Below are positions 34,325-63,648 of a stretch of DNA of 64,000 nt, in pieces. Location: assembly GCA_040285855.1 (NCBI GenBank), contig JAUFOQ010000016.1, positions 2,914,001 through 2,978,000 of the forward strand, given 5' to 3'. The notes beneath the pieces were generated by a model. It saw only the letters and a program-made list of their open reading frames with translations. It was not told the DNA's origin and searched no databases. Position numbers and translations under genes: made by a program. The stretch is from Eukaryota sp. GEM-RC1 (taxonomy: Eukaryota). Each line of letters starts with the position of its first letter. The stretch's first letter is position 1.

Positions 34325-35543
34325 TTACTTAGAAACCAACGAAACATCAATAAACTTGTGACTGTCAGAAACTACAACACTGACTGACTTTGGATCGTAG
34401 CCAGATAATTGGAAACTTAGCTCATATTCACCATTTTCAAGGGGTTCAAGTTCAAACAAACCATCGTTATCAGTATAAACTTCCTTCAACTTATCACCAA
34501 AAACAAGAACACCTGAAAGAGGAACTGAATCGCTAGTAACTAATCCTGATAAAAGGAAAGTTGGAGGAGATGATGAACGCAAGAAAAAGAATAGTAGAAA
34601 AGCTAAGATAACGAGAACAAAACAAGATAAACCAATGGCAAAATTACGTTGAGTCCCAATGAAACTCCAGTTGTCCGTAACTTTAGTAATCCATGGTGAC
34701 GTGGGTTCTGGTAAGGGATCACTACCAGTCAAAAGTATAACGTCATCTTTAAGATCACTTTTTGTTTGGCAGTTCAACTCCTTAACAAGTTTCTCCAATT
34801 CAAGTGTAGGAGGAGCATCGAAAACAGAAGAGAGATTGAACTGAAGAAGAGTGGGATTCTGGTGAAACACGTGATCAGAAGTAACAAAGGTTTTATCAGA
34901 GGGGTCAATGGTGATGAGTGGATGATGAATATCACTAATGAGACAAGCTTGTACTTTAATGGTAGTATCAGTGGATTGCTTAGAGATTTTCTGAATGAGT
35001 AGTGAAAGCTGTTCCCATGGATCTTGGGGAATGACATGACCTAAAGAGCGCAGGTGATCACGGTAAGCATTGACTAGCTCTTTAAGTTGTTCAGCATCGA
35101 GTGCAGAACGATCATCGGTAATAGTGGAGAGTTCCCGAGGAGGAACCTCCAGCACTGCAGTTGCAAAGGTCTCAAGGAAAAGACGATAACATTGATGAGC
35201 AAAAACAGGATTTGTGGTATCGGCAAGCTTTTCAACAACTTCGTCGTTAAGGCCAATATTCAGAACTGAGGTGAGATCAAAACCAATACAAAACATACCT
35301 ATCGCATTGCTAATGGTAGTATCACATTCCTTCTGGACAGCAAGAAAGAGTGGGTTCTCGGACGAGCCGAACTTTAAACCTGTCGTACTTTCTAGCTCTT
35401 GAATCAGTTTAAACGAATCATGATTCGTGCTGGCCGCCAGAGAAAGAGTTGAGGGGAAAGAGTTATCCTGCAATAAGACAAAACGTGATAGTAGATACCT
35501 GTAACTCGTAAGTGAATCCAGGAAGTTGGAGGTTGTTTAGCAT
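34325..35543 (-). CDS. PPDK-fragment/TM/CarboxypepD_reg fusion, copy 2 (intron 35468-35498)
   Basis: Offset 2450 from copy 1. One visible amino-acid difference (SSSPT vs SSSPP). Confidence 0.85.
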
Positions 35544-35819
35544 ACTAGTATAGTATAGTATTCATTACAGATCCAATTTGATCGGAGTTAGTCTGGAAAT
35601 AGGAATTCAGTTTCTCTTTTCGAGAAACACAAGTTTACAGACAAACTGAATGTTCAATAATGACTTACGAGCTCAAATAGTACAGCAATTGAAGTGGTGC
35701 ACATTAGCAGTGTCTCTCATAAATAAATATTAATTATATTTATTAAAAAACGCCTTTAATTTTCTAAAGTTACGTCACTTTGATGAATGTTTGTTCTTCA
35801 TCTTGTTAGTGAAATACGT

Positions 35820-36366
35820 TGGACCAAAAAGAAGTGATCTCCATAATCCGTGGCTTAAATCGAGTCAATTATTAATGGATTTTACTACAGTAAATGTTTG
35901 TAACAACTCTTGTGTTAGTAGGATATTAGATTCTTCTTTTAATTTTTCAACAGCTGCTGAAAGGCTCAAAAAAACCAAGTATGACTCTCACATAGAAGAA
36001 TTAAATCGAAACTCATATTCCAAATTTGTGTTTCAACCTTTTGTTGTTTCTCTTTTTGGGTCGATTAGTCCTGCTGGTGATCAATTTTTCAAAGATTTCG
36101 AAGAACTGTGTAAAGAAAAGAAGCGCAAGTTTAGGATGGCTGAATGGAAAAACCGTATAGTGTTTTCCATATATCGGAATATGCATGTCTATTTTTCTCT
36201 CGATTAATTGAGAAATTGTACAAGTTTTGTGTGAATGTTAATGTTGAAAAACGTAATTTTTTACCGGATGGTGATGAAGGCGTTTGGATTTAATCTTAGT
36301 GTTATTTGTTTGATTTTACAATTTCACAGTTATGTAGGAATGTTACCTTATTGGGTACCGAATAAA
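35820..36366 (+). mobile_element. 5'-truncated family A retroelement (RLE C-terminus + 3' tail)
   Basis: KRSD...MDFTTVNV...K.TKY...QPFVVSLFG...WKNRIVFSIYR, ending ccttattgggtaccgaataaa. Confidence 0.85.
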
Positions 36367-36799
36367 GTTTTAGATAAATATTGGTTAGTTCTATTTAGTT
36401 TCTATCTGTCAATAATGAGACAATCATAGCTCTAGGACTTTTAATGAAACATCAAATGTTCCTCAGACTCGTCATCGTCCTAAAGGAGCCAAATAGATGT
36501 TGTAGTGAATGCAACTCTGATTGAGGATACTTATGTGCAGTAATGCCGATTGCACAACAACAGCATAAATTGAGTTTCCGTTGTATTAGGGATGACAAAT
36601 CGTGTCGAGTACAGATTTGAAAAGTAGTGGGTAACAATTTCCTTATGTTCAGACATAAAGAAGACTCAGAAAGAATTGTACTGTCCTCAGCAACATCCAA
36701 TCGATCACTTTACAGTGTAATTCTTCCATCACAACCAGGCCCTCTCTTACGATAATTTAAAATAATTTAAACGTCAAAAGGTGCCACAAATAATTATAA

Positions 36800-37590
36800 T
36801 TACAACAAAATAAAACACAAATTTAAAGATCATGAATGGCTTGTTAACATGAGACTTCGTTTAGGTTTTTGGCCATTTGGTTTGTTACAGAACAGCACGT
36901 GTATCTGTAAAAAAAATTGGGCTAGCTTTCATCATTTGGTCAATTGTTCAAAGTTCATATATCGTCGTTCAATTTTGCACAACAGTCTTCGAGATACATG
37001 TTTGGAAATGTTTAAGGCGAATGGTATCCATGGCATAGTCGAACCATTACTTTCTCATCTTTCAGATCACTTTGATTCTACTCAGAAACGTGGTGATTTT
37101 ATTGGCCCTTGGTTGTCATGCCAAGAAATTGTTGTTGATTTTACGACCGTTGATCCTTGCAATGCTTCAGCTATTGCCAACATTTTACTTCAAATGATCC
37201 GCTGAAAGACGCTGAGAACGCCAAAGTGTCTAAGTACGGACATCAAGTTGCTGCATTGAATTCACCAAGACACAATATTATCGTCTTTCAGCCTTTTGCA
37301 GTTTCATTGTACGGAAATTTCGGTTCTTCTACCAAAGAGTTTTTAAATTTATTTGAAAATTTGTGTTCAGAATTTGGCAAGAAGTTTAAAAGATCGTACT
37401 GGAAGAGTAAATTTGCTTTTTCGATTTTTAGGTCTATGTATAGATATGTTGATTCCATTTTGTCCAAGTTGTTTGGAGGCAACTACTGTTCGGAATTAGG
37501 TTGTTCGTGTGATCATTTGTTTTAATAGTCCATATCTATTTGTTGTTTTCTTGTTGTGTGTTTTTCTCCACACATAAATCCGTTTTTAAA
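36800..37590 (+). mobile_element. 5'-truncated family B RLE retroelement
   Basis: MRLRLG.WP, CICK..H.VNC, HNSLRD, KRGD, VVDFTTVD, K.SKY and PFAVSLYG, with one frameshift. Confidence 0.88.
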
Positions 37591-37959
37591 CACAAATAGA
37601 AACAAACTATTATAGTATATTTCATAGTTCAAGTCATGGTAAGAAAACACCACATTCATCAACGTCTACTAATCCGTTTCAGGGAGTGTTGACAGTTTCT
37701 GAAAAGAGACCATTTTTTCGGTTATATTGATGTTGGTGACAGGACCTTTTGAGACGCGTTCATTTGATTGTGATCTAAAAGAGAGAGTTGCACTTGGTTT
37801 GAGAATACCGGATCTCAAGTGTATTGATTTGTTACTTGTTTGTTTTTACAATTTCATAGTTTTGTAGGAAGGTTACCTTATTGGGTGCCGAATAAAGTTT
37901 TCTCAGTGTATGGATAAAGGAAAAACATTTTATTTATATTTATATTTATTTTGTCCTGG

Positions 37960-39620
37960 AGTTTATTATAAATGTAATAAATCAAACAACTAAAATTTGA
38001 TGTCATTAAAACAACACCCGTCGCTATCAAACCTTACAACAGCTTTGTCCTCATAAAAGGCACTCACTGCTAATAAAGCTTTGGAGATGATTAGGGGAAC
38101 TGTTTTAAAAACAGTAAAAACGATCCGATTCAACCATAACTTATGATCAAAACGTTTGTTCATCCTATTTTTTATGATTTTTCCGAAATCGTTTAAAAAA
38201 TTCAATGCACTTTTCCTAAACGTCCGTAAATTGAAACGGCAAAAGGGCATAATTCGTACTCAAAATGTTTTACATGTTTTAAAGCCATCAATGGTTTTCT
38301 GTACTTATCCTGTTTGGCCTGTTCAGAAATGTCTAAAGGAGAAGTTTCAGACGAAGCGTTCTTTAAAGATGTCTTTTTAGAAACATCCACTGACACTACA
38401 TCAACAACAAACAATTTGTCTGAAGAAGAAGGAACAACAACATCTGCTCTCCGTTTACCAAAAAATTGGTTCTGTTTTTCGACATTACAATTATTACTTG
38501 GTTCTAAAGATCTTAAAAGTGGTTCAACAAATGACTCAATTTTGTAAGACTTACACATAGCATGTATTTGATCTCTTACAGCATCATGCATACACGTTCG
38601 ATAAGTTATGTAACGATTACAACTTAACAGATGAGAAAACGTAGATTGTTTTCCACAGCTACTTGAAGATCATTTGGCAAATTATGTGGCCATAAATAAC
38701 AACGAAGTCTCATTGTAGTGGTCCATTGATGATCATTTAATAACAGACCATTTACTTGTGGACTTTGATTAATTCATGCCACAACAGAACTCTCCTTTAA
38801 ATCAATTAAAAATTAGCCAAAGCTGGATTTTTTTCCTCAGCCAAGCTAAGACGGACTGTAAAATTTAAACTTTCAAAATATTTTAATAAATGATTTTGTA
38901 GCTTTTTTAAAGCAAACTTTAAAGACAAAATGTTTCGACATGGAATTTCATTGAAAACAAGACGACCACGACTCAGGAGAAAGATTTCCTATTTCACCAC
39001 AGAGATGATTAAGATAAAAGCTGCAAGTACTTTCAAGAAGAGTAGTTCTTGATGGATATCGATTACAAAACTCGAATACAAAATGTTTGCCACCACCAAT
39101 CAAAGCTGCTTTAGTCCACCATTTAGAAGATGTAAATCCCAAACCTCCGAAATATGGACTGGAAAATGTGTGGTTATTTAAAATGTTGGGTTTGACTTGA
39201 AGAAACAATAAAAAAAAAGTCTGTGCGAATTTTGTTAAAAGCTCTACAGAAATCATACGATAACTCAGGAGCAAGGGGCCTTAAAAGATGAGTAATTTTA
39301 CCAGAATAACAAATTTAGAGCATGAAGAATTTTTTAAATGTTTTTCAATTTCAAGAACTTTAATCTTATCCAACTCTTGTTGAATTGAATTCAAATAATC
39401 ATCAAGGTTTTTGACAATATCTTCCTTTCTACCAAAAAAACAACAACCAAGAAATATGAAACTTGAACCAGAATAACTAATGAAAGGGACTTCAATTGAA
39501 CGAATTGTTAATAACGTTGGTTCTTTTCCTATAACGAAACATTTTTGAATGTTTAAATTTAAACCAATCTCTTCACACAAAGTGGCAGCTTCTGCAGAAA
39601 TTGCTTTTATAGTCTCAAAT
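37960..39620 (-). mobile_element. Degenerate RLE retroelement (family C): RT C-terminus to endonuclease
   Basis: IGLNLNIQKC, FLGC, GGLG, HDAVRD, RRADVV, VVDVV, K.DKY and PFAVSIYGRLG across broken ORFs. Confidence 0.88.
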
Positions 39621-40441
39621 TTTTTTTACCTAAAATTATGAGGCAACCTCAATATACAACTAAATATACATAAATTCACAAAACTGACTAAATGCACAAA
39701 AGATAAACATGACAATTTTTGATGACGTTTGGAGTTTCCTTCCTCCTGTTCTGTAAGTCTGCTTCTTCTATAATTGTCTTTCTTATGTATGTCCCCCTTA
39801 GCAACTGTTCCTCCCTTGTTTGTGTTTGATACTAGAGACGAGCTACGGACTTTGTGAGGCAACAGGACACAATAGACGATCTTGCCCTCAAAAAAATGAT
39901 GTCCCTGAACCTCCTAGACAAGTTGCAAGAACAGAAGATTAGGGTATAGCTAGAGTGTCATGTCACTTCTCTTCTTCTAGTTCAAATAAAAAACTTCTCT
40001 GTCATTCTATTTAACCATAACACACACATCGTTCACTTGAAGATGAAAACACATGCTTCTGGATAACAAGCTTGTTGGTGGCATCTCTAAGCCCAAAAGT
40101 TGTTTAAGAAGAACACTTCCTCCACATTGCCATGGGAGATGCTCTTCGGGGATACATCTCTGACTACGTTTCTTCGCAACTGTTGTTTTGGATGTTCTAC
40201 ACCCTAACTTCATTCAGAGATGAGATTCTACTTGCCATTTTGCTGTGGAAAAGTGTTGTTAATCACTTGTGATTGCACTTCAGCAATCACATATTTATGA
40301 CCTCATGGAAAAATTTTGTCGCACGACAAAAAATTGTCGTGTTGGTATTTTGTATATTTATCCATTTTGTATATTTAGTTTTTTTCAAATAATAATTTTA
40401 TGTTATAAATTAACGAAATACAAAGAACTAGTACTTAAAAG

Positions 40442-41547
40442 CATAGTTGCAAAATACACGGACAAAAAAATAATACAATACAGAATACAAAAAATACAGA
40501 ATACAAAAATACAATACAGATACAGAATACAAATACAATACAGAATACTGTATTAAGTGTATTTTTGTCTTGTATATCGCAAGTATTTAACTAACTGTAT
40601 TGAGTCCAACCACTGCAAACGTGATTGATCTTCAGGGTTATCATGGTTCAACTCTTCAGTATACAGTCTTAGACTTCTTTTCATTAATTACCCCAATTGT
40701 TCTTTCGATTCTAAAATGCACCGACGGTTCAAATGTTCATTTAGTCCACGTTTAAAGAACTGACGTGGAGATATACAGTTATACAATGTGACGTTGGACA
40801 CTTTTTGTCCCGTACATTTGTTGTAAATCGTCTTAATATACCGCTTGTAGGTAAATATGTTTAAACTCGAAATCATAGTCCCCAAAGACCACACGTACAT
40901 CTTCAAAACAGGATCAAACTGAGTGTCGTGTAGCTCGTCTCATCAGGGTTTTGAATCTGCATCACTGACTGACAGTAGTGAAGCTACTGTAGATTGCACA
41001 ACTTTACATCATTTGGTGTTTTTCAATTCTTGGGGACGAACATTATTAAGCGTTTCTAAATTTTTGTTACTTGACTTTGATCGGTGTTTCACTTTTTAGT
41101 CATCTAGCATACGCCGTTGACGTACTGTACTGGAACGTTTAGAAAATTCAGCAGACAATTGTACAGGTATTTCTGCAAGTTTGAAAAATAATACATGACC
41201 CAATTGTACCATACAATGGTATAATTGATCGGAACGATCCGCTTTTGAGTGTTTTCCTCATTTACTTCAGTCATTGTCATCAACTAAAGGGATTTTAGGG
41301 CAGGGAAAAAATACAAAAAATACAAATACAAATACACTTTTGCAGAAAAAAATACAATACATAATACAGAAAAAATACAGAATACAAAAAATACTGTATT
41401 TTGTATTTTGCAACTATGGATTTTAGGGCAGGGAAAAAATACAAAAAATACAAATACAAATACACTTTTGCAGAAAAAAATACAATACATAATACAGAAA
41501 AAATACAGAATACAAAAAAATACTGTATTTTGTATTTTGCAACTATG
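40442..41547. mobile_element. Non-autonomous hAT element
   Basis: TIR CATAGTTGCAAAATAC and exact 8-bp TSD cttaaaag. AATAC subterminal repeats. Internal BED-finger-like relic VW...C...LNEHLNRRC at 40688-40906 (minus strand). Confidence 0.88.
41291..41547. repeat. Two tandem copies (~128 bp) of the hAT element right end
   Basis: gattttagggcagggaaaaaatac...gtattttgcaactatg occurs at 41291 and 41419. Confidence 0.92.
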
Positions 41548-41561
41548 CTTAAAAGAAGAGA

Positions 41562-42430
41562 TGTTTATTCGGCACCCAATAAGGTAACCTTCCTACAAAC
41601 TATGAAATTGTAAAAACAAACAAATAATACTAAGATTAAATCCAAACGACTTCATCACCACCCGGTAAAAGATTACGTTTATCAACATTAACCTTCACAC
41701 CAAACTTGTACAATTTCTCAATTAATCTAGAGAAATAGAAAGGCATATTCCGATATATGGAAAACACTATACGGTTTTTCCATTCAGCCATTCTAAACTT
41801 ACGCTTCTTTTCTTTACACAATTCTTCGAAATCCTTGGAAAATTGATCACCAGCAGGACTAATAGATCCAAGAAGAGAAACAGCAAAAGGTTGAAACACA
41901 AATTTGGAATATGAGTTTCTATTTAATTCTTCTACTTGAGAGTCATACTTGGAGTGTTTGAGCTTTTCAGCTGTTGTTAATGGATTAAAAGAAGAATCTA
42001 ATATCCTACTAACACAAGATTTGTTACATACATCTACTGTAGTAAAATCCATTAATGATTGACTCGATTTAAGCCACGGAGTATGTAGATCCCCTCTTTT
42101 TGATCAGTAAATTCATTTTCTGAAAGATGATTCAAAACTGGTTCAACTTTAGAGTGAAAACCATGTGCTTTAAACATGGAATAACAAGAATCACGTACAC
42201 TATCATGAATTACTGCACGGAGATGAATAAAATAACGACAATTAATTAAATGACGGAAAACACCATTAGCTCCACAAGAGCACGTTGAATAGTTTAATAA
42301 ATTTGCAGGCCAAATAGCCAAACGAAGACGCATATTGATCATCCAAGCTTCATCAGATAGATGTAATCCATACACTTTTGGAATTTGAGAAATAAATCCA
42401 GACGGTCCACTATTACAAAGATCAATTAAA
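41562..42430 (-). mobile_element. 5'-truncated family A RLE retroelement
   Basis: ORFs 42052-42375 and 41636-42052 are close relatives of 30653-31330 and carry the same 3' tail. Confidence 0.9.
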
Positions 42431-42589
42431 AAAAAGATATTTAAAAGACTGTATATTTAGTTGTATATTTAGGTTGCCTCAAAATTATTTATTCTAAAAG
42501 TAATAGACAACAACACTACAGTGTACATACATCTAATAATCAATATCCTCAAAGTCCAGATTGCCTAACTGGAAATTTTCACCTACCTT

Positions 42590-43390
42590 ATCTTCATAAT
42601 GACTGCCAAGAGATAATAAAGCACTAGATACAGAAGTCACCATACCTTTAAAGATAGCAAACACGATTCGATTGTTCCAAAATCTAAGATCAAAAGTCCT
42701 AGATGATTTTTTCTTTTACAATCTTCACAAAGATTTCAAGTAATGATGTTGCAGATTCACCTAAAGAACCGTACAGTGAAAACACAAAAGGGTACAACAA
42801 GTAATTTGAGTGTGAAGCCGAATTCAATAATTTCAATTTAGCACAATATTTTTGCATTTTAAATTTTTCACCAATCAGCAAGGGGTTTTTAGCAGTAGAT
42901 TTAGCAAGTTTCTTGTTGGAATCATTACAAACATCGATAGACATAACATCAGCAATAATGAAAGATCCATCAAGACCAGGAAATATGACATCCCCACGGC
43001 TATTTCCAAACGATTTGTCAACATCTGTATCATCAAACAAACCAGCCAGACTGATAGTTTCAAAAGGTGCAATAAAAGTAATTTCATCCATATAAACCAC
43101 AATTTCCAAATCCTTACACTTGGATTTAAGATAGTTGAGGATGGGGTGAATAGCAAGGCAGAAGAAAAAAAGGACCAAAAGGATCGCCTTGTTTAACACC
43201 GGTTAATGAAGAAAGATTAGCCGAGTTCTAGACCAAATCAGACGAATTACCATAATAAGTATGAAAAAAAGATTCCAATTCTGGAAAATGTTCTTGTAAT
43301 TGTGGCAAAATAGCAGCACGTTTAGCAGAGTTGAATGCGTTTTTAAAGTCAAGATTATAAACAAAAACTTTGATAAGAATATATAAAATA
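42590..43390 (-). mobile_element. Internally deleted RLE retroelement (family D): RT core joined to RLE
   Basis: LDFKNAFNS, GVKQGDPFGP and VYMDE (from YxDD) are followed directly by SRGDVI...ADV...K..KY...PFVFSLYG. Confidence 0.85.
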
Positions 43391-50285: not shown

Positions 50286-52007
50286 TTAAGATAATTCAAC
50301 TGAATATTTTAATTTTTCCTTACAATGAGGACATTTAAGTCCACCAGAATCAGTATTGTTATCAGCAGTCAACAAATCAATGATTGGTATTTGTTTTTCT
50401 TTAGGAACAAAATCAAATCTGCGCTTAATTCCAAATAATTTAGCAATTCTATTAAAGAACTTTTTTGTTAACCTGTTCATTGACGATGTTAATCCACATT
50501 CCCTATATCTGTCCTCAGCCTGTCTAATCAAAGTGAACGCATCAGTAATTATAGCAATAAAGAAGTTCATCAAAATATAGTAACCAAATGACATGAAAGA
50601 GATCAAAAAGAAACTTCCCATGATTGGATCGACCTTATACAGAGCTAAGTAATCGAAATCAGTCAATAACATTCTGAACAACGACATTAATGATTGTTTG
50701 AAGGTCGAAAAGTCGAAAACGTCTTGGCCAAAAGACATGTGCCCCATCAAAGCAAATCCAACTAGAATTACGCCAAACACTACAGAGAAGGAAAGAATAT
50801 CAGGAATTGCCACGGCGAGAACGTGAATTAACACGGACAGCTTATGAGAAATTCTGAAAAATTTAAATAATTTAAATACCAGCAAGAACGCCAAAACTGC
50901 CAGAGCATACATCATTCTATCAATGAAATAGCCAAGTAATTCAAATGGGACTTGCTCTAGGTCAAAAACAGCAAAATCATTCAACGTGATGATTGATCGA
51001 GTTTTGTAGTAAATCACAATTCCAAAAAACACGTGTGTAATCAGCTCTAAATAGAAGTACCAGACACGTAGACATCGACGAAGCGAATTGCCAATCATAC
51101 TGTTGATTGTTAGACATATATAAATAAACTCACCAATCACGACAACAATTTCCATTCCAAACTTAAGTAAATCCTCAAAAGTAACTGCTGAAAACAATTT
51201 TACACTTTTAAAATATGTTGAAGTGAAGACAGATCCAGCAGAAGGAATCTCGAAAGCCACTCTAATTAGCCCAGTAGTATGAAGAGATGGATTATAAACA
51301 GCAAAATCAAGGGTAACCAAACGAGTTCCAATATCAATAAAATTATGTTCAAATAACTCAGTGATTATTTCCATGGTATCTGATAACGTTTTATTGAAGT
51401 TGATGACATAACCAGCACCAGAATAATGATTGATTCTGCCTGTCCAAGGAAACAAGCTCGTTTGTGAAGCTGACTTCCATTTCCATTTACCATTAGGACC
51501 AAATGGAGTCCTTTCCTCGTTTTCATCAGTCATTCTTCCGTAACAATGCTCAATCTCATGTTTGAACAGAGAGGGAACTTCACAAGAGTCTTTGGCAACC
51601 CTCTGGGAGGACAACTTTACTTTGCCAATGAGTCTATTGTACTGAGCAATGGTTCCAAGTTCTATAGTGCCGTTAGGAGAGAGTTTGTTATAGATACGTG
51701 GTAGGACTGAAGTGTTGATGTAGGGAAGGATATCTGCAGGAGTGTAGATATCGTAGAACTCATCATCAAGAAGCTTGAATTCAATAGCACGTTGGAAGAA
51801 GTAGCCGTTGGATCCACTGAATTGCAGTTTGAAAGCAATCAAAAAGAGAGTCAAGAAAACACAGTAGAAGAGTAAATCGATAGCTACAACAGTTTTCTCC
51901 TCTGTGCAAAGGTATGGAGTAAGAAGAGGACTTGGGAGGGGAGTTTCGTCCTCGTCAGACGAAGAAGGCAGGAGGTTGTCTGAAGCATTGGTGTTGATTC
52001 CGTTCAT
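50286..52007 (-). CDS. Polycystin-2 (PKD2/TRPP)-type cation channel
   Basis: TOP domain motifs RV..DSC, CY, YSGAGY and IDIGTRLV.LDFAVYNPS. Six TMs, pore FSTF..S..SLFRMLLTDFDY, and S6 ILMNFFIAII.D.F. Confidence 0.92.
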   Translation of the reverse strand: MNGINTNASDNLLPSSSDEDETPLPSPLLTPYLCTEEKTVVAIDLLFYCVFLTLFLIAFKLQFSGSNGYFFQRAIEFKLLDDEFYDIYTPADILPYINTSVLPRIYNKLSPNGTIELGTIAQYNRLIGKVKLSSQRVAKDSCEVPSLFKHEIEHCYGRMTDENEERTPFGPNGKWKWKSASQTSLFPWTGRINHYSGAGYVINFNKTLSDTMEIITELFEHNFIDIGTRLVTLDFAVYNPSLHTTGLIRVAFEIPSAGSVFTSTYFKSVKLFSAVTFEDLLKFGMEIVVVIGEFIYICLTINSMIGNSLRRCLRVWYFYLELITHVFFGIVIYYKTRSIITLNDFAVFDLEQVPFELLGYFIDRMMYALAVLAFLLVFKLFKFFRISHKLSVLIHVLAVAIPDILSFSVVFGVILVGFALMGHMSFGQDVFDFSTFKQSLMSLFRMLLTDFDYLALYKVDPIMGSFFLISFMSFGYYILMNFFIAIITDAFTLIRQAEDRYRECGLTSSMNRLTKKFFNRIAKLFGIKRRFDFVPKEKQIPIIDLLTADNNTDSGGLKCPHCKEKLKYSVELS

Positions 52008-52592
52008 GTTTGTGTGACCAAACTTCAATGAAGAAGGTAAGTAGGTTTTGGATAGAACAACCTAGACTCGATTAAAAAGTCAACTTTGATCGATCTCATT
52101 GTCCAATCTAGTGCCATCACAATATGCTCAGCATAAAGGTGCCTCAGATGATGGCAGTGTTTCTTAAAGCTTTTGGCTATTGTTTTAAACACTATATTTG
52201 TGGGAAATCAATATCATTTGATGTTTCACACTCAAACAGAATTCCAAAAACAATTCCGACAAATTGTTTTCACTAAGAACGGTACTAATATTCAAATATG
52301 ATTACACCATGAAGTAGAGGACTCAGAAATCTAGACTGTACTTGCAGATGTAGAATATCCAGAAAAAACCCAAATGTACTGTATTTCTGTCATCTGTGCA
52401 AAGGTATGGAGTAAAAAGAGGACTTGGGAGATTAATAGATTCTTCATTAATTAAATTTTTAAAAATTACTAAAACTGAATACTGAAAACCGACCAAAAAG
52501 TTCCAACCTAACAGATCTTAATCATTAAAAATTACCTCAATATCATGAGGCTAAAATCAAGTAAAAAAACAATAAACTACACAATCCTCTAG

Positions 52593-55236
52593 TTATTTCC
52601 TCAGCACATTCTTCCACTGTTGAACTTTCCTTCTACCAAAGGTCAATTCCTTCCCATAAGGAAGAAGTAAATGATCTTCAATTTCACAACTAGAACAGAA
52701 CATTTCCTGAATCTCCGTCAGCTTTGACTTTAAACTGTGTTCCTTCCTTCCACGAACATCTAGCCATGACAACAACTCACAAAAGACTTCTTCTGAAGTC
52801 ACAACCTGCCACGTTGACTCTTCTTCCCCTTTGTTTTCTAACCACACGCAATTAGGCGAGGAAAAGAAGAACCAATAAACCAAACCATTTCTATCAACCC
52901 CCAGAGGTTCTGTACGGATGACTGCTCTGTGTTCTAACTCTGTGAATTTAGAACTTGTAGCAGCCATTTTTTTACGATGCCGCTCAATTTCATCAGATTT
53001 GGCGGCAAGCAGCGAATCTTTGCGCCTTTCTAACCGGTCAAGTTTCCCCTGAGCTCTTTTCTGCTCAACACCTTCCAAATTGGAAATCTCGTTTTTAAGA
53101 GCCAGAATCGCTTCTTTTACCTCTTTAATCTTTTGAGAAGCTTCCTTTGAAGACAACTTAATCATAGCATCTCGATGACGTTTCTTTTCAGCTTGCTCCA
53201 TCTCAGTCTTGCTCTTTTTGATATCCATGACGTCAACAAACGTATTATCCACGTAATTTTGAACTGATTCACTCTGCAAACATAAATCCACTAGATATTC
53301 GACAAGTTCAATTCGTTGATCAACTTTTAAAGCAATAAAAGAGTTAAAATTTCTCACAGCATCACTCGCATTGTAAGAAACATTACCAAACACCAAAACT
53401 TCTTCTTCTTCTGGAAGTTCTTCAGATGACAGTGAATGTTCCGCCTCACTTTCAGAGTGTGCCGACTCCTCATCACTTAGATTTGGTCGTTTGACTTCTG
53501 GTTCAGTCGCTACCTTTCTGAGCTGAGCACGTGTCATGACGCGAGGTTTGGGAGTTTCTTTTGCACTCTTCTTTTCTTGAAGGTGTGAAAACGGCAGGTT
53601 TCTTGGAAAGTCTAGATGAACGTCGTAGTACAGGCCTTTCATCTTCGGAGGAGCTCTCATCTGAATCACTGAGCTCTTCTGATGACGTCATCATGTCCTG
53701 TGGAGGATTTTCCATAGCCTCTTCCCCGTAACTCACATCTTCCTCTTGTTCCTCATCTTCTTTCTCTTCATTAGAATCTTCATCTGAACCAACTGACTGT
53801 TCTTCTTCAACAGATGAATCGACATCTCCACTGTCAACATGTTCAGTCACTTCTTCCTCCGGTGATTCTTCTTCAACTTCACTATCTTCTTTTTCCTCTT
53901 CAACAACTTCTTCCTCCATCTGTTCCTCTTCAACAACTTCTTCCTCCACTACTTCCTCTTCAACCACTTCCGAGGCCTCCTGGATAGCTTGAACAAGCAC
54001 AGTGTTAAGTTCCTGAGCCTCTTCCTCATCGAACTCCTTGTACAACTTCCTCAGATTCTTAGCCAGTACCTCCACCCAATTACCTGGCGAAGGAGAGAAT
54101 CTCTTACCAAAAGATTGTATGATTAATGAAATAAAAACTTCATCAATTATAGTGCAATTTAGACTTCCCAAGTCTTCAGGAGACTTAACTGAATCATCAA
54201 GAAATGAATCAACAAGAGAAGAGAAAGAAATGGGTGAGAGGGATAAAAGTTTGGAAAATGAAGAAATGAATTCCGAGAGCTCTAGTAATGACGTGACATG
54301 ATCGGAATCGAGGTCAAAAACGTCATCGGGAGTCTCCTTGACAGGAAAACTTGCCACTTTTGGTGGAGGTTGCCCATCAAAAGATTGTGTGTGATCAGAA
54401 ATCTCATCGTCATCAATTGGAAATGATCTCCGAATGATTGGCTTTGATTGCGTTTGATGTGCAAAATCAGTGATTTTTGATTGATTCAATGATTTCTTTT
54501 GCTTTACAACTGGAACGTCATCATCAATAGAGATCACCTCACCTTCCCTTCCATTATTGGCAGGTGGACTATCAGGAACGTGAAGATTCTTCAAAACGCT
54601 TGGTAAAACCTTAAAATACCCACATGATTTCGTAGATATCTGTTTGAGTATCGTACGTAGTATAGTTTTGGTCAGATCCTTTCTTCTTTTAACACTTTCT
54701 TTATTCAGAAGAAGATCAATACTTCCATCCTCGTGTACTGTCCCGCTGGCCTCAGCTGAGCTTACAAGGAAAGCGGGGGCATTGCAGATGGTAACTAGAC
54801 TTTTGGAAGGAGGAAGGCTTTTAGCAAAGGTACCAATGAGAGGACGGGTTGAGTGGGGTATGTAACACCAGACTTCTTCACCGGGAAGAAGGAGATGGTC
54901 GAGAACAGTGGTGATGGTAGTGAGAAGTTCATCTAGTTTTCCTTTGAAGTTGTGGGTGAGGGATGTGATGAATTGGAAAACAGAATAAGGTAGACATAGT
55001 CTAGACTTGAGGTTTTGTTGAGCTTGTTGAAAGGAAGTGAAGTTGGTACCACCTAGAGAAGCAGTCCATACAGCAGACGCATAGAGTCTTAAAGTGGAAA
55101 TATAGGCTTCATAATCAATAAAGATTTCACCAGTCAGCTGGTTGGTAAAGTACTCCGTACCTGGTGAAAGAATAGGGGTAGGAGCAGGAGCATAAGGCTC
55201 TCCTTTGAGGTACGGAAATACTTGAAGTGGAGGCAT
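52593..55236 (-). CDS. WAC/DDT/WHIM-WSD chromatin remodelling subunit (ACF1/BAZ1A/Itc1-like); +1 shift at ~53575
   Basis: TGEIF.DYEAY.....LY...VWT (WAC), LLELSEFISSFSKLL.LSP (DDT), an acidic tract, RTEPLGVDRNG.VYWFF and WLDVRGRKE..LK (WSD). Confidence 0.88.
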
Positions 55237-55499
55237 TGGTATTATTTCTGGAATTCGTTTCAGTCAGGTTATTTTTGATTCACTGACTTATTTGTACAGA
55301 GCTCAGTTTTTTGATTCACGTGTTCCGAATCTCTACATACGTAACAAATTATATTCAAGGATTTGACCATCATCGTCAAATGGGTGTAGACAAAAATTAT
55401 TTCAGAAACAGTCTCAAGGTTTAATAGGTAGGTACACCCGAAGATTCTTAGATAGTGTTTGAATCTAGATGTCTCATCTACTACTAGTAGATGATGTAA

Positions 55500-55664
55500 A
55501 ATTCTGAATTCCACTCTGTGTATTAATATTTCATTTCAAATGCATTTCTACTCAGTCCGAGGACTGTTTTCACACATCTTCCTTAATTACTCTACAAAAT
55601 CCGAAGGCAATACAGTATACATCTCTGCATACTCCCTCCGGGGAAAGCTATACTACGTTACTAA
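55500..55664 (-). ncRNA. Candidate Fanzor omega-RNA scaffold/guide region
   Basis: Lies immediately 3' of the Fanzor stop. Several hairpins on the minus strand: TTTCCC-cgga-GGGAG, ATGCAG...CTGTAT, C-TTCG-G and CAGTC-ctcg-GACTG. The call is inferred from position; boundaries are unknown. Confidence 0.45.
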
Positions 55665-58600
55665 CTACGAGAGATATTCAGGTCTTCCTCTCCCTTCTCT
55701 ATACCCATCTACTATTCTCAACATATTCAAACACGCAAGCTGATTACGATTCCAATACTTTCTCTCACTTGATCCTCTACAATTCTCGCTTCGACACTCA
55801 AGTAGACCATGACAAAGCACTTTTGGAGTTTTTTTCTCTTCTGTAGGGTCTTGGATTCTCGATCTTATGGAACTTCTTCACCTCACTTTCACAATCTGGG
55901 CAGCAACTGGACGTTTTCTTTTCATTCAATAAAACGACTTCAAATCCATTTCTTCTCAAGAAAGACCGCCATCCGATTCCTCTTGTCGGTCTGTGATGTT
56001 TCAAATTCACTTGACCATTTGCCCCAAAATCACCCATACAGATCAGTAGCTCTTCTCTTCTTCGTCCAAAAGTCGATTCGAGTGACTTCAACAACCAGGA
56101 CTCTACTTTCTGCTTATGGATGTAGGAACGCATTTTTTGGATGCGCCATAAGGCAGAACAGTAAAACCAAGCGGTTGACGTCACTTGTTTCATTTTGGCC
56201 TGGACCCAAGCTTCGAGATCAGCAAACGTGGCAGATTTTGGACTTAATCCTGAAAGCAAGCTATCAGTTTCTTCAATTGTGAGCGGTGGAGTACTTTCAG
56301 AATCTTGATTTGATCTGTTTCTTGATGGTCTAACTTTGAACTTTCTTCTGGCACCTTTTAGCAGGTGTTGTTGCTTTCTTGCTACCACAGTCCATTTGCA
56401 TTGTGTCAGTCGCAGCCAATTACACTTGTTTTCTTGAATTTGTTCTTCATTTCTTCCACCAAAATAAAGTAGATCCCTTTTCCAGGGTCACAGACGACTA
56501 CTTTTTTTGTTGTAAATTTTTCTGCTCTCAAGTCTTTACAATAAACTTCTTTAATCTTTCCTTGTAAATCATCCTTACCTCTTTTTTCACCAGCAAAGTC
56601 ACGCCTAACTAACTCAATTGAACAGTTTTGACCGTCACTGAGGATAATGTTGTTGAACACATAATCCTTCTTTTTGAATTCTTTTAAATCGAAGTTTACA
56701 AACATTTTCCAAAAATCATGTTGGTCTTTTGGTTTGAACTTGGTCACCTCAGCCTGGTTGTTCATTAACTTCAGATCCTTGGTTTTCTTGTTTTGCCTGA
56801 CGATACTCCACAAAGTTCTAGTATCAATAGGAAAGTAGCCTGGGATTACCGTGGTTACAGCAGGAAACCAGTGAAAAGCCGCTTCTTCTTTCTCCTTCAC
56901 ATAACGATTCATAGTTATAGCTGCCGGCATGAATAATTGAGGCTTTTTTTCGAGTTCCAAAATTTTAGTAAATGGTCGAAGCACTCTTAATTCAAAAGGA
57001 GGTGATCTCTGCAAAATTTCAAATTTTTCAACGACATACGGGTAAATAAAGGCATCGTATAAAAAGTCTTGTTCGTGAGGTCTCATTCCTTTTCCCCCTG
57101 CTTTATCCTTCCAATCTTCTTCAAACTTTTCTAGGCAAAATTGATTTGAAAGTAACAAGTTGAAGTTATCGACAGATTCAGCAGTAAAAATGTCTTTAAT
57201 CTGTCGAAGAGCAAAACGATACAAAGTTAAAGTTTGTTGACGATCAGGTCGTTCTTCTCTTGGCAGCTCTTTAATTAAATTTGAAATTTCTTCTTCAGAC
57301 TGCTTTTTTCCAAAATATACGTTAATGAAACGATTAATATGTTTTTCAAAGTGGAGTTTCAAGTTGTTGTTAATGTTACACAGGAGTACTGGAGCAATGT
57401 ATTCTGGTGGTCTAGAGAAGCCTTGAGGAGGAAACATTGGAAAGTTATGGCCTTCATTTGCTTCTAACTGAATACGATAGCCCTTGTGAATTGAGTTGCT
57501 GTCGAATTGTGCTTCTCCCATGACAAATCGTTCTAAGTCCGCATCAATTGCACTACTGGGTCGTTTATAGGGCTGACCATAAAATTGGGCACAAAGATAA
57601 TTTATTCGAGTCATTACAGACGTAATCATTTGTTCAGTAATTTCAGGTAACGCTTCTCCACGTTCAAATCTTGCTGATAAAAACAATTGCAGGCATTGTA
57701 GGGTATGGCGACGAAGTTCGTGAAATTGAGGTGCTAGCTGCACAATGTTTTCAAAGACATCACGATGCTTCAAAATTCGTGGAAGAGTAGACTTTACCAT
57801 CCTATAAGTTGGAAGAATAAATTTTTCTTTCTGGAATAGCATACAAAGTTTTAAAGTTAAGTTGGCATGTTGATAATTGTAATCAACTAAGAGAGAGACC
57901 AGTGTACTTTTACACCAACAATCGATGGGCAAAAGATTTCCAAGTTCTTCCTTTTTAAGTTTGAGACAAAATTCGTGTATCAGATTTCGTGTAAGAGATG
58001 CTAAATCATTTCCAAATTTCATTGTGAGAAAACGTTTTGCGAACAATAAAGTATCAAGTATCAAGTATCCGTGTTTATTTTTAACAACTTCACGCCAGTT
58101 TTTAGATAAAAGATTAAGGTTGGATTCTTGGAAATTAACAGGCCATGGGAACTGATAAAACTGGAAACGCTTTTCCAAAACTTTGAAGTCAAATCCAATA
58201 ATATTGTGACCAGTAATGAAATTTGGCTGGTAATCTTGAATTACGTCCATCAATATATGGAGCAGGACCAACTCATTGGGCACAACATAGATTTCAGTTC
58301 TTGGGGATAAACTGCATTCAATTGGAGAAGGTAGGTTTGTTGCACAAAGGTTGACACAGATAATAATTGATTTTTCTTCGTAAAAATTGTCTTCATTAAA
58401 ACGGCCAAAAATTAATGCAACTGACATAACTTTTTGGCTAGAAATCCATCGATCATGTTCTTCTGAGTTCATCTTTTTCAGCTTCAGGGATTCCTTTCCT
58501 CGAAGCTTACTTAATTCCCTCCGTAATAGCTGTTGGAATTTCATCATCATGATGCATTGTCTCCAGGTCAATAGACATAATTTTTGGAAGAGCATAAGCA

Positions 58601-58946
58601 TTAGGGTGTTTTTGAGCACATCCGAATTCAATCAAATTCTGTTTTTCGTTGTTGTCATGTGGCTTAATTTTCTTCAAAGCTTTGAGACAAGATTTCTTAG
58701 CAGGAAAAACTCTATTAGACAGGCGTTGTCCATTAATTTTCAAGGGAGCTCTCCGTGATTTGGCTTTAACTTGAGCTTTTTTGGCAACTCTTGCTAAAAT
58801 TTCGAGATTTGACATTGGAGGACTAGAACTACTATCAACTCGACTTTTTTTTAACAGGGGGGAACAATGGAAGTCGAATCATCACGTCGAATAAAAGGAA
58901 GACTCAATCTTGTACCGATGGGATCAGAATTGGGATTAGATTGTGG
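55665..58946 (-). CDS. PolB-type 3'-5' exonuclease domain fused to Fanzor1 (TnpB-like RNA-guided RuvC protein); homopolymer indels at ~58855, ~58518, ~56478, ~55832
   Basis: Exo motifs: IMSIDLET, NE..LL...PNFITGHNIIGFD, ILDTL and YNYQHA. Fanzor1 motifs: VKSTL..IL, NINNNL..HF, FP......YFPIDT, F...ILSDG..CSI, VCDPGK(R)DLLY, ICMGD, PTRGIG, LNEKKTSSCCPDC, HGLLEC...C, WNRN..AC.NM and GRPEYL. Confidence 0.88.
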
Positions 58947-58985
58947 ACCTGGATTGGATTCCACATCACCATCAGATGTAAGATC
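58944..58985 (-). other. 2A/StopGo ribosome-skipping peptide DLTSDGDVESNPG|P
   Basis: Exact match to the (G)D[V/I]ExNPGP consensus. Same strand as the Exo-Fanzor ORF and directly upstream of it. Confidence 0.8.
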
Positions 58986-59485
58986 AATTTTGAACTGCAG
59001 TCTACAATCAAAACTGACAGAAATTTGCAAAAACGACACTTCAATAAAATTTCACCACCACCACCAAAACCACCACCACCACCGATCCACTGAATTTTAG
59101 AAGGAGGCAAGTTTGGGGGCTGGAAAGCAGTGTGTTGCCCTGGTGGTTCTATCACCATGCTGGGCATGTAAAAATGATAGGCCTGACTGCCAAAAACAAC
59201 ACACATACTCCCATAAAAAACCCTCGACTTCGAAAAAATAAAAAATTTGGATTGAATTGGATCAATGACCAAAAATGCCTTCCTTGGGGTTTTGCTTGAA
59301 CAATGATGCCTTTGATTAGCATATTGCCGCCCGGTCCCACCCAGGCTGTATGGATACAAGATATCTACAGAAGTTGCTTCTGTAGAATTCCACCTGATTT
59401 GATAGGATGACTTTCCCACCAAAAACAGGCCTCTCATAGCCGTCGAATCAATGAACATAGACATGTGAGCAAAAAAATGGACCAT
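58947..59485 (-). CDS. Unknown ~180-aa leader with Gly-rich patch, probably ending at the 2A site
   Basis: ATG-started ORF 58904-59485 joins the 2A frame through a single missing base in GAAATTTTATT (~59047). No family recognised. Confidence 0.45.
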
Positions 59486-60610
59486 TTTGTGGGTTGTTGG
59501 TATTTATAGATGTGTCTACAGTGTCATGTCAGTCAAGACATTTATTGACGATTGTCTTCATTTTTCACTTTTCAGTGTCCTCTACATGGACAATTGACGA
59601 TGAATTTGCTCCTTTCAGTTGTTCTTTAAACAATTCACATCTTTATTTTCTTCACACTTTCCTTCTGAAGATGATGTATAAAGATTCGTATTGGTTTTCT
59701 AGACACACTTTACACAAAATCACGCTACAAATGTCCCACTTCCTTTCTTCTTCTGTTCTTATCCTTTGTTTTGATATAAATAAAAGTATAATTGGGCGCG
59801 GACACAATTTGGTCTCAACGGCTTCCGTAGAGACACGTTTTGCTGGAGGAAGGAGATACCAAGAACATTGATAGAGCCCATGTTCCCTCTCAAGTCTCAG
59901 TCTTTCAACTTACATCACTCAGTCAACTCTCGTCTTTCCGATTCATCAACAAACATGTAACATTCCCTTTTCAATATAGATTTCTCTTCTCTTAGTGTTA
60001 CCACTCTTGCTTTGCTCTGTATCAATCTCATGCTATAAGTCAGAAGATGCTCCAGAATCATAGTCAATTCTGATGCTTATTTATCTTCATCAATAAAGCA
60101 AACAACTTTTCTACTTTTTGTGCTAACTTCTTCAAATGGACAAAACAAGAAAAAAAATTCTCAGTTTAGACACCTCACCTATAGTAGATGAGGGACGAAG
60201 TCTGATTCTTCCTGAAAGAGTTTTGTTCCTTACAGTTTGCTTCCGAGATCTCAGAAATCTTTTATCGTTTCAAGTCTTCTATTTCGCTCAGAAGATCTAC
60301 CCTTCTCAAGATCTACCCTCTCTAAATCCCCTGCTTTCATGTCTTCAAGACTGAGAGCAACCAACCATTCCCCCCCTCTCTTCAATACGTCCTTCAAGGA
60401 GATTTATGCTCATCGTAATTCCATGTTCAATGATATTACAAACAAAGTCAATGAGATTCAAGAAGATGGTGCAACAGAAACAGACAAGCTCTCGAGTACC
60501 TTGATCAGATTGATGTATATCTTTCTCAGGAACAGAAGAGATGTGAGGATGATGATTTAGATATTGATGAAGGTGTTTGTAATGATCATTCTTATTGTTT
60601 TAGTTCCCAT

Positions 60611-61160
60611 TCAGCTGTAGACTTGACAAAACTGACACTTACTCACACTCTTCTTCTTGGGAACCTGATCTGTAATCCCACCATCCTCGATAGTTATTGT
60701 TTGAGATTTTGGTCTCTCGAGGACAGCAGGTCTACCTTGACCTTGGATAATTCCATTTACAATGTTATAAATGTTAATAGCAGAGTTGAAGTCTCTATTC
60801 CAGAGGACATGACATTTAGCACACTGAACTAAGCCCCATGGTGAGACTTTGTTGCTCTTCAACCTTGCTTTCATGAATGGCAACTGTTTGGTCCATTCAT
60901 CTTCAAAATTACGTTTCACAACATTGTCTAATTGATTGTGTTCCATAATTTTTTTTTTCAATTTCTTCTCCTCCTTCTGTAACTTCTTCTTCCACAGAGG
61001 ATCAATGACTTTGACAAAGTCAGGATTGGAACAGATACCTTCCTGGTTTTCAGCAGCACAAGCAGAGCAACATTTGCTTGTCATAAATTCATCAACTAAG
61101 AAAACTTTAAATCCAAATTTTCTTAGTAAGTTTCAAAGAGTAGCGCCTTTTACTGTATTC
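60611..61160 (-). pseudogene. 5'-truncated second Fanzor1 (RuvC-II, Zn finger, RuvC-III)
   Basis: TVKGATL*NLLRKFGFKVFLVDEFMTSKCCSAC...WGLVQCAKCHVLWNRDFNSAINI...GRPAVL. Contains an in-frame TGA, and no N-terminal half is visible. Confidence 0.85.
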
Positions 61161-61773: not shown

Positions 61774-63648
61774 ATGTCCATTATCAACACACTTACAGAC
61801 GAACAGGCTCAAGTGTTCCAAGCTATTACTCATGCAAGACCTTCTAAGCGTCGAAATTTCTTTATTACTGGTGGTGCCGGATCGGGCAAGTCTTACCTAC
61901 TGTACTGTCTTAAACAGTGGTGGTCTAATGCGGGTTCCAAGCTAATGAGACCCAATGGCCATGTCTTTTTTACTGCTACTACTGGTGTTGCTTCCACTGT
62001 CTTTGGTGGTCAAACCCTACACTCTCTCTTTGGTTATAATTTTATCCGTAATGAAAAACCAATAGCTGATGTCATTCGCTCTATGCCTTCAAGTGTTAAG
62101 TCTGTTTTACGAACTATTAGTGCCCGAAATTCAATGCTTGTTATTGATGAAATTTCAATGTTGACTGCTGAACTATTCAACAGAGCATCTGATATATTTA
62201 AAGATTTACTAAAGTCTCAGTTACCATTTGGTGGTCTTCAAGTTGTAATTTTTGGTGATTTTTTGCAACTTGCACCAATTGTAAAGTCTGACTCAAACAC
62301 ACGTACTGTTCTTCAACTTTCAGACTTTACGTTTTCATCACAGTCTTGGAAGGACTTGAATTTAAATTTTATTGAATTATCTGGAAGTATCCGCCAACAA
62401 AATGATGTCAATTTTTATAATTTTTTGAATGAACTACGTCTCGGACTTTTTGATGACTATATGAAACATATTTTATTGAAACATAAGTCACTAGCCAAAA
62501 ATATTGAAAGTCCAACCAAATTATTTGCTAGAAACAAGGATGTCGCCGACGAAAATTTAAAGCAATTTGATATATTATGTGAACAAGGCAATGAAAATGT
62601 TGAATTTCATTCCAATGAAACCTTAATTAAATCAGAAATTGGTAAAAGTTGGGCATTTGGTAAGCCTAATGAGGAACAAATGGAAAAGGCTGTTGGTTTA
62701 AATTTAAAAAAATTATCAAGTAGGCTAAACGATTTTGCCGAACAAAAATTTCACTGTGTCGTCGGGGGTTTGGTAATGTTTACCCAAAACAAACCAGATC
62801 TGGGCCTAGTAAATGGGTCAAAAGGCAAAATTATTGATTTTTCAGAGACTTCACATTTCATTAATGTAAGATTCGGGAGGGACGAAGAACCAATCAAAAT
62901 TATTCCGACTAAATTTGAAATTGAGGTGTTGAATGAGAAGAAAAAGCCTGTAATTATAGCTTCCGGATTGCAATATCCTCTTCGTCCTTGTTGGGCAATA
63001 ACAGTCCATAGATCTCAGGGACTAACAATTGAAGGAATTGAAGTTTCATTAAATTTTTGGGAATATGCCCAATTGTACGTTACATTGAGTAGGGTGAAGA
63101 ACTGGAACTCAATTAAAATTTTAGATATTTCTTCTAGATTTCCCAAACCAAGAATTGATCTTTATCAGTGGTATTATTCCACTTTTCACCCCTGTCGACC
63201 GGTTACTAAACCTCTTTATCCTTTGCCATTAGAAGATGAAAGAATTGTTAGAAATTGGCCTTCTGTGTTGAAAACTTTTGATGAATTTTCGTCCAATATT
63301 ATTTCTATTGTTGGTGAAAGTATGGAAACTGTTGATGTTCTTGATCCAGTCAATGAAGAAATTGAGGAAGATTTGGTGGAAGATGTTCCAAAAATTCAAA
63401 ATTTAAATACCACTTCTGATTCAGTTTTAGAATTGTTCGATAATGAAGTTGTTGTCTCTGGAAGTGATAGTGGAGATGATGAAACTGATGATGATGACGA
63501 TGCGTCGTCCAGTATGAATGATTTTGTTGTGAATGATGACGATGAGTGTCTCAATAATCAAAGTGTAAGTGCCATCAATTCTGATTTTATTTTTAACAAA
63601 CCTGTGCCAAAACTGAAAAAACAACAGTCACTACTTTGCCTAAATTGA
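61774..63648 (+). CDS. PIF1-family SF1B DNA helicase with acidic tail (may continue past a frameshift at ~63620)
   Basis: FFITGGAGSGKS, TATTGVAS..GGQTLHS, VIDEISM, PFGGLQV..FGDFLQLAPI, IRQ, LVNGSKG, QYPL..WAITVHRSQGLT and QLYVTLSRV. Confidence 0.95.
   Translation: MSIINTLTDEQAQVFQAITHARPSKRRNFFITGGAGSGKSYLLYCLKQWWSNAGSKLMRPNGHVFFTATTGVASTVFGGQTLHSLFGYNFIRNEKPIADVIRSMPSSVKSVLRTISARNSMLVIDEISMLTAELFNRASDIFKDLLKSQLPFGGLQVVIFGDFLQLAPIVKSDSNTRTVLQLSDFTFSSQSWKDLNLNFIELSGSIRQQNDVNFYNFLNELRLGLFDDYMKHILLKHKSLAKNIESPTKLFARNKDVADENLKQFDILCEQGNENVEFHSNETLIKSEIGKSWAFGKPNEEQMEKAVGLNLKKLSSRLNDFAEQKFHCVVGGLVMFTQNKPDLGLVNGSKGKIIDFSETSHFINVRFGRDEEPIKIIPTKFEIEVLNEKKKPVIIASGLQYPLRPCWAITVHRSQGLTIEGIEVSLNFWEYAQLYVTLSRVKNWNSIKILDISSRFPKPRIDLYQWYYSTFHPCRPVTKPLYPLPLEDERIVRNWPSVLKTFDEFSSNIISIVGESMETVDVLDPVNEEIEEDLVEDVPKIQNLNTTSDSVLELFDNEVVVSGSDSGDDETDDDDDASSSMNDFVVNDDDECLNNQSVSAINSDFIFNKPVPKLKKQQSLLCLN

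Follow-up and report, generated by a model that had tools for sequence, protein, structure and literature searches.

We analyzed a 64,000-nucleotide stretch of Eukaryota sp. GEM-RC1 DNA (contig JAUFOQ010000016.1, positions 2,914,001 to 2,978,000), which we call the window and which is part of a gene-dense eukaryotic genome. On its minus strand lies a gene that joins a 3'-5' exonuclease domain, of the type found in family-B DNA polymerases (PolB), to a Fanzor1, an RNA-guided nuclease. An earlier note, made from the sequence alone, had pointed to this fusion and had claimed that one open reading frame (ORF) runs uninterrupted from the exonuclease into Fanzor1. It does: the frame at 56406-58631 has 741 codons without a stop, and ExoII, ExoIII, the start of the Fanzor part, and RuvC-I are all inside it, so the fusion junction needs no frameshift correction. 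The rest of the gene is in other frames. ExoI (58572-58558) is in a second frame, which opens at a methionine at 58815; RuvC-II and the first zinc-finger pair are in the frame at 55798-56487; and the second pair, RuvC-III, and the stop codon are in a third frame. The homopolymer joins that the note had proposed for ExoI and for the RuvC end are supported by sister copies and relatives that are in frame. The matched pieces contain no in-frame stop, and from Met 58815 they add up to about 1,049 amino acids (aa) instead of the ~1090 aa given earlier. This methionine lies outside the range that had been assigned to the gene, and it is also the start of the sister copies P0016, P0017, P0019, P0042, P0043, and P0044 (we label related proteins by P numbers).

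The exonuclease domain matches DNA_pol_B_exo1 (PF03104) from Pfam, at aa 64-205 of the ORF, with 54.2 bits (E = 1.8e-14; the cut-off is 23 bits). We checked its catalytic residues in representatives of six lineages. The Asp and Glu of ExoI and the Asp of ExoII are present in all six, and the Asp of ExoIII is present in five; likewise, 5 of the 6 have all four acids as well as the ExoIII Tyr. For example, P0046 has D-E-D-Y-D, while in P0058 the spacing from Tyr to Asp in ExoIII is shorter by one residue. In the window's lineage, His replaces the catalytic Asp of ExoIII in all five copies (P0001, P0015, P0016, P0017, and P0019). The earlier note had found ExoI, ExoII, and ExoIII correctly but had missed this substitution. 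Judging from these residues, the exonuclease is very probably active in most of the family, and the odds are about even that it is weak or dead in the window's lineage.

As had been noted, the polymerase itself is missing. In a simple pattern scan, the PolB palm motifs A, B, and C were absent from 6 of 6 family proteins and from all six frames of the window, while a control polymerase (P0154) had all three. Pfam scans of the window and of family proteins gave no match to PF00136. A profile search of 1.84 billion representative sequences yielded 475 matches; among the best 150, which are the ones we examined, P0154 (E = 5.9e-10) was the only full polymerase.

The remainder of the protein has the features of Fanzor1. 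Both the window copy and P0046 have a split RuvC of the form D ... [TS][TS]xx-C4 zinc finger ... R-D/N, and in both the RuvC-II Glu is directly ahead of the zinc finger, as in Fanzor1. (The window's RuvC-II and zinc-finger piece hits PF07282 with E = 0.0048, which is under the cut-off.) Also, aa 323-794 of P0019 are matched by 80 viral Fanzor1 loci. The RuvC-II, zinc-finger, and RuvC-III end is present as the earlier note described, except that the RuvC-III residue is Asn and not Asp. The triad is D-E-N, and the Asn is found in all 14 family sequences that reach RuvC-III; the other fetched proteins that fit the pattern divide into 65 with Asp and 2 with Asn. We considered whether this Asn marks a dead nuclease and dropped the idea, because GtFz1 has the same Asn and is reported to cut DNA, and the D606N change raised the activity of SpuFz1 (PMC11423790).

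Predicted structures agree with both assignments. We used AlphaFold2 to model a 978-aa stretch of P0046 from a 99-row alignment (pLDDT 86.6, pTM 0.77). Residues 10-264 of the model resemble the exonuclease domains of Pol alpha, epsilon, II, and delta (VIA Z = 14.7 to 13.6, with 187-191 residues aligned at a root-mean-square deviation, or rmsd, of 3.3-3.5); the Z values are tied among these and favor none of them as the donor polymerase. Residues 265-978 resemble Fanzor1 proteins: PpFz1 (Z = 26.4, rmsd 3.1, 580 residues aligned), SpuFz1 from its residue 18 onward (Z = 25.3-25.9, Foldseek template-modelling (TM) score 0.82 by target), and GtFz1 (Z = 21.0). The top 7 rows are all Fanzor1 (SpuFz1, PpFz1, or GtFz1) in both Foldseek and VIA for P0046, and in Foldseek for P0019. 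The models of P0046 and P0019 have the enlarged REC and WED and the whole-chain fold of Fz1, and not those of Fz2 or TnpB. In the ESM Atlas, aa 70-340 of the sister copy P0019 match PolB exonucleases with TM scores of 0.64-0.71. (The P0046 model replaced an earlier model of P0019, from a 12-row alignment, whose pLDDT below 50 for aa 1-345 made it uninformative about the exonuclease.) Thus, the concern that the N-terminal region might not fold as a DEDD exonuclease is not borne out in these models. Together, the two fold matches and the lack of palm motifs indicate that a PolB exonuclease domain is attached, at the WED, to a Fanzor1 that is complete.

The fused gene is not a single copy, as the earlier note had feared, but belongs to a multi-copy family found in anaerobic protists, with the exonuclease acids kept across lineages that are 25-39% identical. 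At 90% identity, the window protein has six cluster mates at separate loci in Eukaryota sp. GEM-RC1. Eukaryota sp. TZLM1-RC contributes P0008 (35% identity) and P0007 (38% identity), whose alignments extend through the junction. In Eukaryota sp. TZLM3-RCL, C-terminal halves of the family are present and the exonuclease end was not recovered. Further exonuclease-Fanzor proteins among the best 150 of the 475 profile matches are P0046, P0047, P0049, P0055, P0056, P0058, P0077, P0092, and P0112. P0046 (1281 aa) is intact from ExoI through RuvC-III. P0077 jumps from ExoII to the middle of Fanzor, which is either an internal deletion or a mis-prediction, and in another protein, P0060, a DM10 domain is joined to the C-terminal half of a Fanzor. 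Scans of metagenome contigs and viral contigs for DNA of the family gave no match, nor did annotated phages match the family; the sole exonuclease match in the contig scans (L081) was judged to be spurious.

The junction is constant: all 14 sequences that span it align without an indel between the helix of ExoIII and the first strand of the Fanzor. Among the six lineage representatives (15 pairs), the exonuclease is 26-39% identical and the Fanzor part 25-38%. The similar ranges and the fixed junction suggest that the exonuclease and the Fanzor diverged in step. In a quick tree of the region from WED to RuvC-I (112 rows, 174 columns), the 19 family rows form one clade (SH-aLRT 99); several of these are truncated at the N terminus, so the exonuclease could not be checked in them, and three exonuclease-bearing proteins (P0049, P0055, and P0058) were left out because their sequences stop short of this region or inside it. 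As a control, we examined 81 viral Fanzor ORFs from 80 loci. These reach at most 13 aa ahead of the Fanzor start, and no ORF at those 80 loci has an exonuclease match (best E = 0.17). Finally, the assemblies of GEM-RC1 and TZLM1-RC were both made from nanopore reads but with different assemblers, Canu and ABruijn (PMC11316075), which rules out a shared assembly chimera. We are almost certain that the fusion is real. The features of the window copy and its surroundings are listed in the table.

Features of the fused gene and its flanks in the window (all on the minus strand)
Feature	Coordinates	Strand	Basis
Basic N-terminal segment from annotated Met	58573..58815	-	73/78 identical among sister copies
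Family-B polymerase 3'-5' exonuclease domain	57834..58578	-	PF03104 (E 1.8e-14), fold, motifs
Exonuclease motifs	ExoI Asp/Glu 58569-58561; ExoII 58211-58188; ExoIII 57881-57867	-	motif positions
Fusion junction, ExoIII helix to first WED strand	57798..57854	-	14/14 sequences without indel; unfused viral Fanzor1 matches begin here
Fanzor1 WED/REC lobe, start 57818	56496..57818	-	viral Fanzor1 matches; Foldseek top 7 are Fanzor1
RuvC-I Asp (motif 56495-56481), bridge helix, RuvC-II Glu (motif 55932-55909), first zinc-finger pair (55902-55891)	55798..56495	-	motifs
Second zinc-finger pair (55805-55779), RuvC-III with Asn (55754-55740), stop (55667-55665)	55665..55835	-	motifs
2A/StopGo-like motif (core D-V-E-S-N-P-G-P at 58967-58944)	58944..58985	-	pattern, codon model, relatives
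Possible Pro/Gly-rich leader peptide (uncertain)	59050..59167	-	within 199-codon open frame 58904-59503; codon model
Weak candidate omega-RNA or right-end region of the element	55431..55664	-	modest fold signal

The three frame breaks in the window copy each coincide with a run of bases (58517-58519, 56478-56481, and 55829-55835). At the ExoI break, four of the six copies that cover it are in frame (P0016, P0017, P0019, and P0044), and the window copy and P0042 are shifted. The break at RuvC-I is common to the window copy and P0019. A programmed frameshift there was set aside, since relatives, including those from two other named species, read through RuvC-I in frame. More broadly, sister proteins depart from the window's frame in 13 places. 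We dropped five of these as clusters of substitutions or a different start, and judged the other eight to be frame changes or ends. Five of the eight are at runs of at least 5 bases, compared to 13% of background positions. This bias fits run-length errors from nanopore sequencing, of a kind that short-read polishing cannot remove from repeats, but slippage during the decay of copies would yield the same bias and fits equally well.

Upstream of the annotated start is a 2A motif that the earlier note had missed. The canonical D-V-E-x-N-P-G-P core matches just once in the window's six frames, where 3e-5 matches are expected by chance. A codon model trained on 13 ORFs from the window scores the 2A frame best over 59060-58821. 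A shift of one base, at a base run (58845-58862), separates the motif's frame from that of the exonuclease ORF, and the annotated sister proteins all begin at a methionine downstream of it. In P0092, P0055, and P0058, a 2A-like motif is in frame with ExoI, which it precedes by 48, 64, and 293 aa respectively. Set against the 2A consensus GD(V/I)ExNPGP, the core is canonical in the window and in P0092, while P0055 and P0058 have His in place of Glu; changes of this Glu mostly abolish activity, and the motif alone is reported to be insufficient for skipping (PMC3708506). No 2A-like motif was seen in P0046 or P0049. P0046 has a long low-complexity extension instead (aa 1-310), with a duplication of 30 residues and basic patches. 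P0058 carries a cysteine protease similar to SENP8/NEDP1 (aa 219-400, E = 3.7e-4 to PDB 2BKQ) downstream of its 2A motif and ahead of the exonuclease; this protease may act on ubiquitin-like tags of the host. As for the leader, the codon model is positive for 59180-59061 only, and the upstream frame of 193-199 aa has no match in Pfam, PHROG, or the Atlas. We infer that 2A skipping would split off a leader peptide and so free the exonuclease-Fanzor (and, in one lineage, the protease too). The family extends the range of 2A motifs to genes that carry a Fanzor.

The closest known relatives of the Fanzor part are SpuFz1 (8GKH) and PpFz1 (9CF0). They have the same WED-REC-RuvC-TNB fold (TM 0.82 and 0.65 by target, Z = 25-26), the same RuvC-II Glu six residues ahead of the zinc finger, and the closest sequences to the C-terminal part of P0046 (E = 2.6e-32). 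The family differs from them in that an exonuclease of about 255 aa replaces the first 17 residues, RuvC-III has Asn, a 2A motif lies upstream, and no terminal inverted repeats were found for the window copy. GtFz1 (9CER) shares the D-E-N triad; however, it has no exonuclease domain and is more remote (Z = 21.0, 18% identity). The exonuclease has the fold and the ExoI, ExoII, and ExoIII motifs of the proofreading domains of Pol alpha, delta, epsilon, and E. coli Pol II, but the fused family lacks the N-terminal, palm, finger, and thumb domains of those polymerases. APE-type non-LTR (long terminal repeat) retrotransposons such as Ingi, L1Tc, CR1, L2, Rex1, and Crack also have a 2A near the N terminus of a single long ORF (PMC3708506); the family has no reverse transcriptase or APE domain, and its downstream product is the exonuclease-Fanzor. 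Engineered fusions of TREX1, TREX2, or T5 to MmeFz2 likewise put a cutter and an end-trimmer on one chain. Those are artificial, use other exonucleases, and impaired MmeFz2 (PMC12923547), whereas the family described here is natural and conserved.

A literature search, which did not extend to supplements (fig. S1B of PMC10530073 lists Fanzor architectures), subscription papers, or Repbase, found no Fanzor-exonuclease fusion. Nor did it find a report of a TnpB fused to a DEDD exonuclease, of a Fanzor from a metamonad, or of a Fanzor-2A polyprotein. The word "exonuclease" is absent from the main text of PMC3627910, PMC10711439, PMC10530073, PMC13565253, and PMC10691335, and the text of two 2A surveys (PMC12846837 and PMC12338488) does not contain "Fanzor". 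The Fanzor1-exonuclease architecture is real, conserved, made of known parts, and apparently undescribed so far.

What might the exonuclease be for? By analogy with other Fanzor1 proteins, we infer that the family binds an omega-RNA and cuts 14-21 bases from the target-adjacent motif (TAM). Fanzor1 has a 3' omega-RNA with a guide of 14-15 nucleotides from the flank, and the cut positions are 16-17/20-21 for SpuFz1 and 14-17/14-16 for GtFz1 (PMC10432273). OMEGA nucleases are reported to cut empty sites and to promote restoration of the element by gene conversion (PMC13565253). If the family does the same, each cut would leave about 14-17 target bases as a 3' tail on the TAM-side end. This tail would mismatch the element-bearing donor at the junction, as the donor has those bases beyond the element, and would have to be removed before gap repair could finish. 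An exonuclease tethered to WED, near the TAM and at a fixed distance, would be well placed to clip the tail in cis. There is a precedent in yeast gene conversion, where the proofreading activity of Pol delta chews invading 3' ends by up to about 40 nucleotides and excises 3' nonhomologous tails (PMC9477423). Our preferred reading is that Fanzor makes a guide-directed cut and the exonuclease then trims that cut's 3' end, which would favor copying of the element into empty sites. We give this reading a probability of about 0.45. Of its parts, it is somewhat more probable than not that the exonuclease acts on the Fanzor's own cut, while the chance that the trimming serves homing is slightly below even. 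Tentatively, the family may be a natural cut-and-trim enzyme: a Fanzor1 clade whose proofreading domain has worked through a long radiation, which is released by 2A, steers repair toward copying of the element, and carries optional cargo such as the SENP8-like protease.

Several observations weigh against this reading. The 80 viral loci without an exonuclease imply that Fanzors in general need no trimming. Rad1/Rad10 also removes nonhomologous tails (PMC9477423), so hosts have alternative routes. The ExoIII His counts against full exonuclease activity in the window copy, and since it is in 5 of 5 copies, the window's lineage seems to have multiplied without a canonical site. Engineered fusions of TREX1, TREX2, and T5 all impaired editing by MmeFz2 (PMC12923547). 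Some parts of the exonuclease domain in the P0046 model, in several blocks, have pLDDT of just 51-65. Also, searches around the window copy turned up no element ends, target-site duplications, or transposase, so homing has no direct support here.

The same anatomy would also suit a cut-and-destroy enzyme, in which the exonuclease chews the ends so that they cannot be rejoined, which would turn the Fanzor into a mutagenic weapon aimed at viruses or competing elements. Repeats make up 28-55% of the named relatives' genomes (PMC11316075), and with other RNA-guided nucleases, fusion to an exonuclease is reported to increase editing (PMC12923547). However, the copies are numerous and dispersed like those of a selfish element, unlike a single domesticated gene, and we consider this explanation unlikely. 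It is a little less likely that the exonuclease is a passenger on a polyprotein, serving replication or transposition of the element (for instance with a helicase or transposase from elsewhere) and merely sharing the Fanzor's chain. The modular chain of 2A, optional SENP8-like protease, exonuclease, and Fanzor would fit this, as would an intact Pif1 helicase ORF ~3 kb upstream, the DEDDh nucleases in P and piggyBac elements (PMC3627910), and the DnaQ-like domains in LTR polyproteins (PMC6338049). But a short linker of fixed length leads to the Fanzor in 14 of 14 sequences, while the spacing from 2A to ExoI varies from 48 to 293 aa; in all 4 cases the 2A is ahead of both domains and never between them; and a simple pattern scan of the window found no Rep or palm motif.

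Alternatively, the domain might trim the 3' end of a read-through transcript into a mature omega-RNA guide. The DEDD fold includes RNases, and Fanzor1 guides end 14-15 nucleotides past the conserved scaffold (PMC10432273) and need 3' trimming. Every sequence and fold match, though, is to DNA polymerase exonucleases, and attachment at WED would put the domain at the end of the R-loop that is far from the guide's 3' end, going by the contacts in SpuFz1. We think this improbable. A module that only binds DNA ends or stabilizes the protein would account for the His in the window's lineage, but five other lineages, about 30% identical, retain all four acids, which is more than a purely structural role would require; this is, if anything, slightly more improbable. 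That leaves an artefact or a neutral accident: the assembly could be chimeric, or a Fanzor could have inserted into a polB gene that was decaying. Frameshifts do affect the window copy and the majority of its sister copies. Yet the same junction is in assemblies of two species built by Canu and ABruijn, and in further records; P0046 is intact; and there is no palm domain nearby, all of which makes this explanation hardly credible. The earlier note had left the choice between an end-processing module and a captured part of polB; from the sequences and models, we favor an end-processing module of the protein's own over a recent, passive capture.

To our knowledge, the Fanzors and TnpBs described so far rely on the host to process the ends. 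A conserved fusion would show an RNA-guided nuclease evolving control over the repair of its own breaks. For genome editing, the family offers an evolved cutter-exonuclease geometry where engineered Fanzor fusions failed (PMC12923547). P0046 would be a better test object than the window copy: it is intact, and it has the D-E-N triad that is reported to raise SpuFz1 activity.

Around the gene, searches of the window for inverted repeats found arms at chance level only. The 3' flank (301 nucleotides) folds with z = -2.27, and 3 of 100 shuffles were as good (this is from one copy). The best of 24 flank windows has z = -3.5 (55431-55520) and contains modest hairpins, and Rfam has no match in the candidate omega-RNA region. 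Directly downstream, at 52593-55239 (-), two overlapping ORFs make up a chromatin remodelling gene of the ACF1/BAZ1 type, with WAC, DDT, WHIM1, and WSD; this gene bounds the 3' end of the element. Upstream, a second Fanzor fragment at 60611-61132 (-) runs from RuvC-II to RuvC-III (PF07282, E = 3.1e-9) and is outside the fused family. It has the canonical Asp and a long insert in the zinc-finger region, and its upstream part is missing or decayed. The Pif1-like helicase ORF mentioned above is uninterrupted (61780-63648 (+); PF05970, E = 1.2e-32) and has an acidic tail. In Helitrons that carry Fanzor1, a Rep (HUH) domain is fused to Pif1, and the ends are TC...CTRR with a 3' hairpin; here, a Rep domain had no Pfam match in the helicase ORF.

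Other genes in the window include two copies of one gene, at 1-970 and 9116-11153 (-), which are broken at the same place and which we take to encode a RING-like domain plus a protein kinase. The ORFs at 31875-33086 and 34325-35536 (-) are near-identical tandem duplicates of 403 codons. Four short ORFs at 35734-43202 (-) are presumably the restriction-like endonuclease ends of non-LTR retrotransposons. Lastly, the ORF at 50286-52061 (-) encodes a membrane protein of 591 codons, which we assume to be similar to polycystin-2-type channels.

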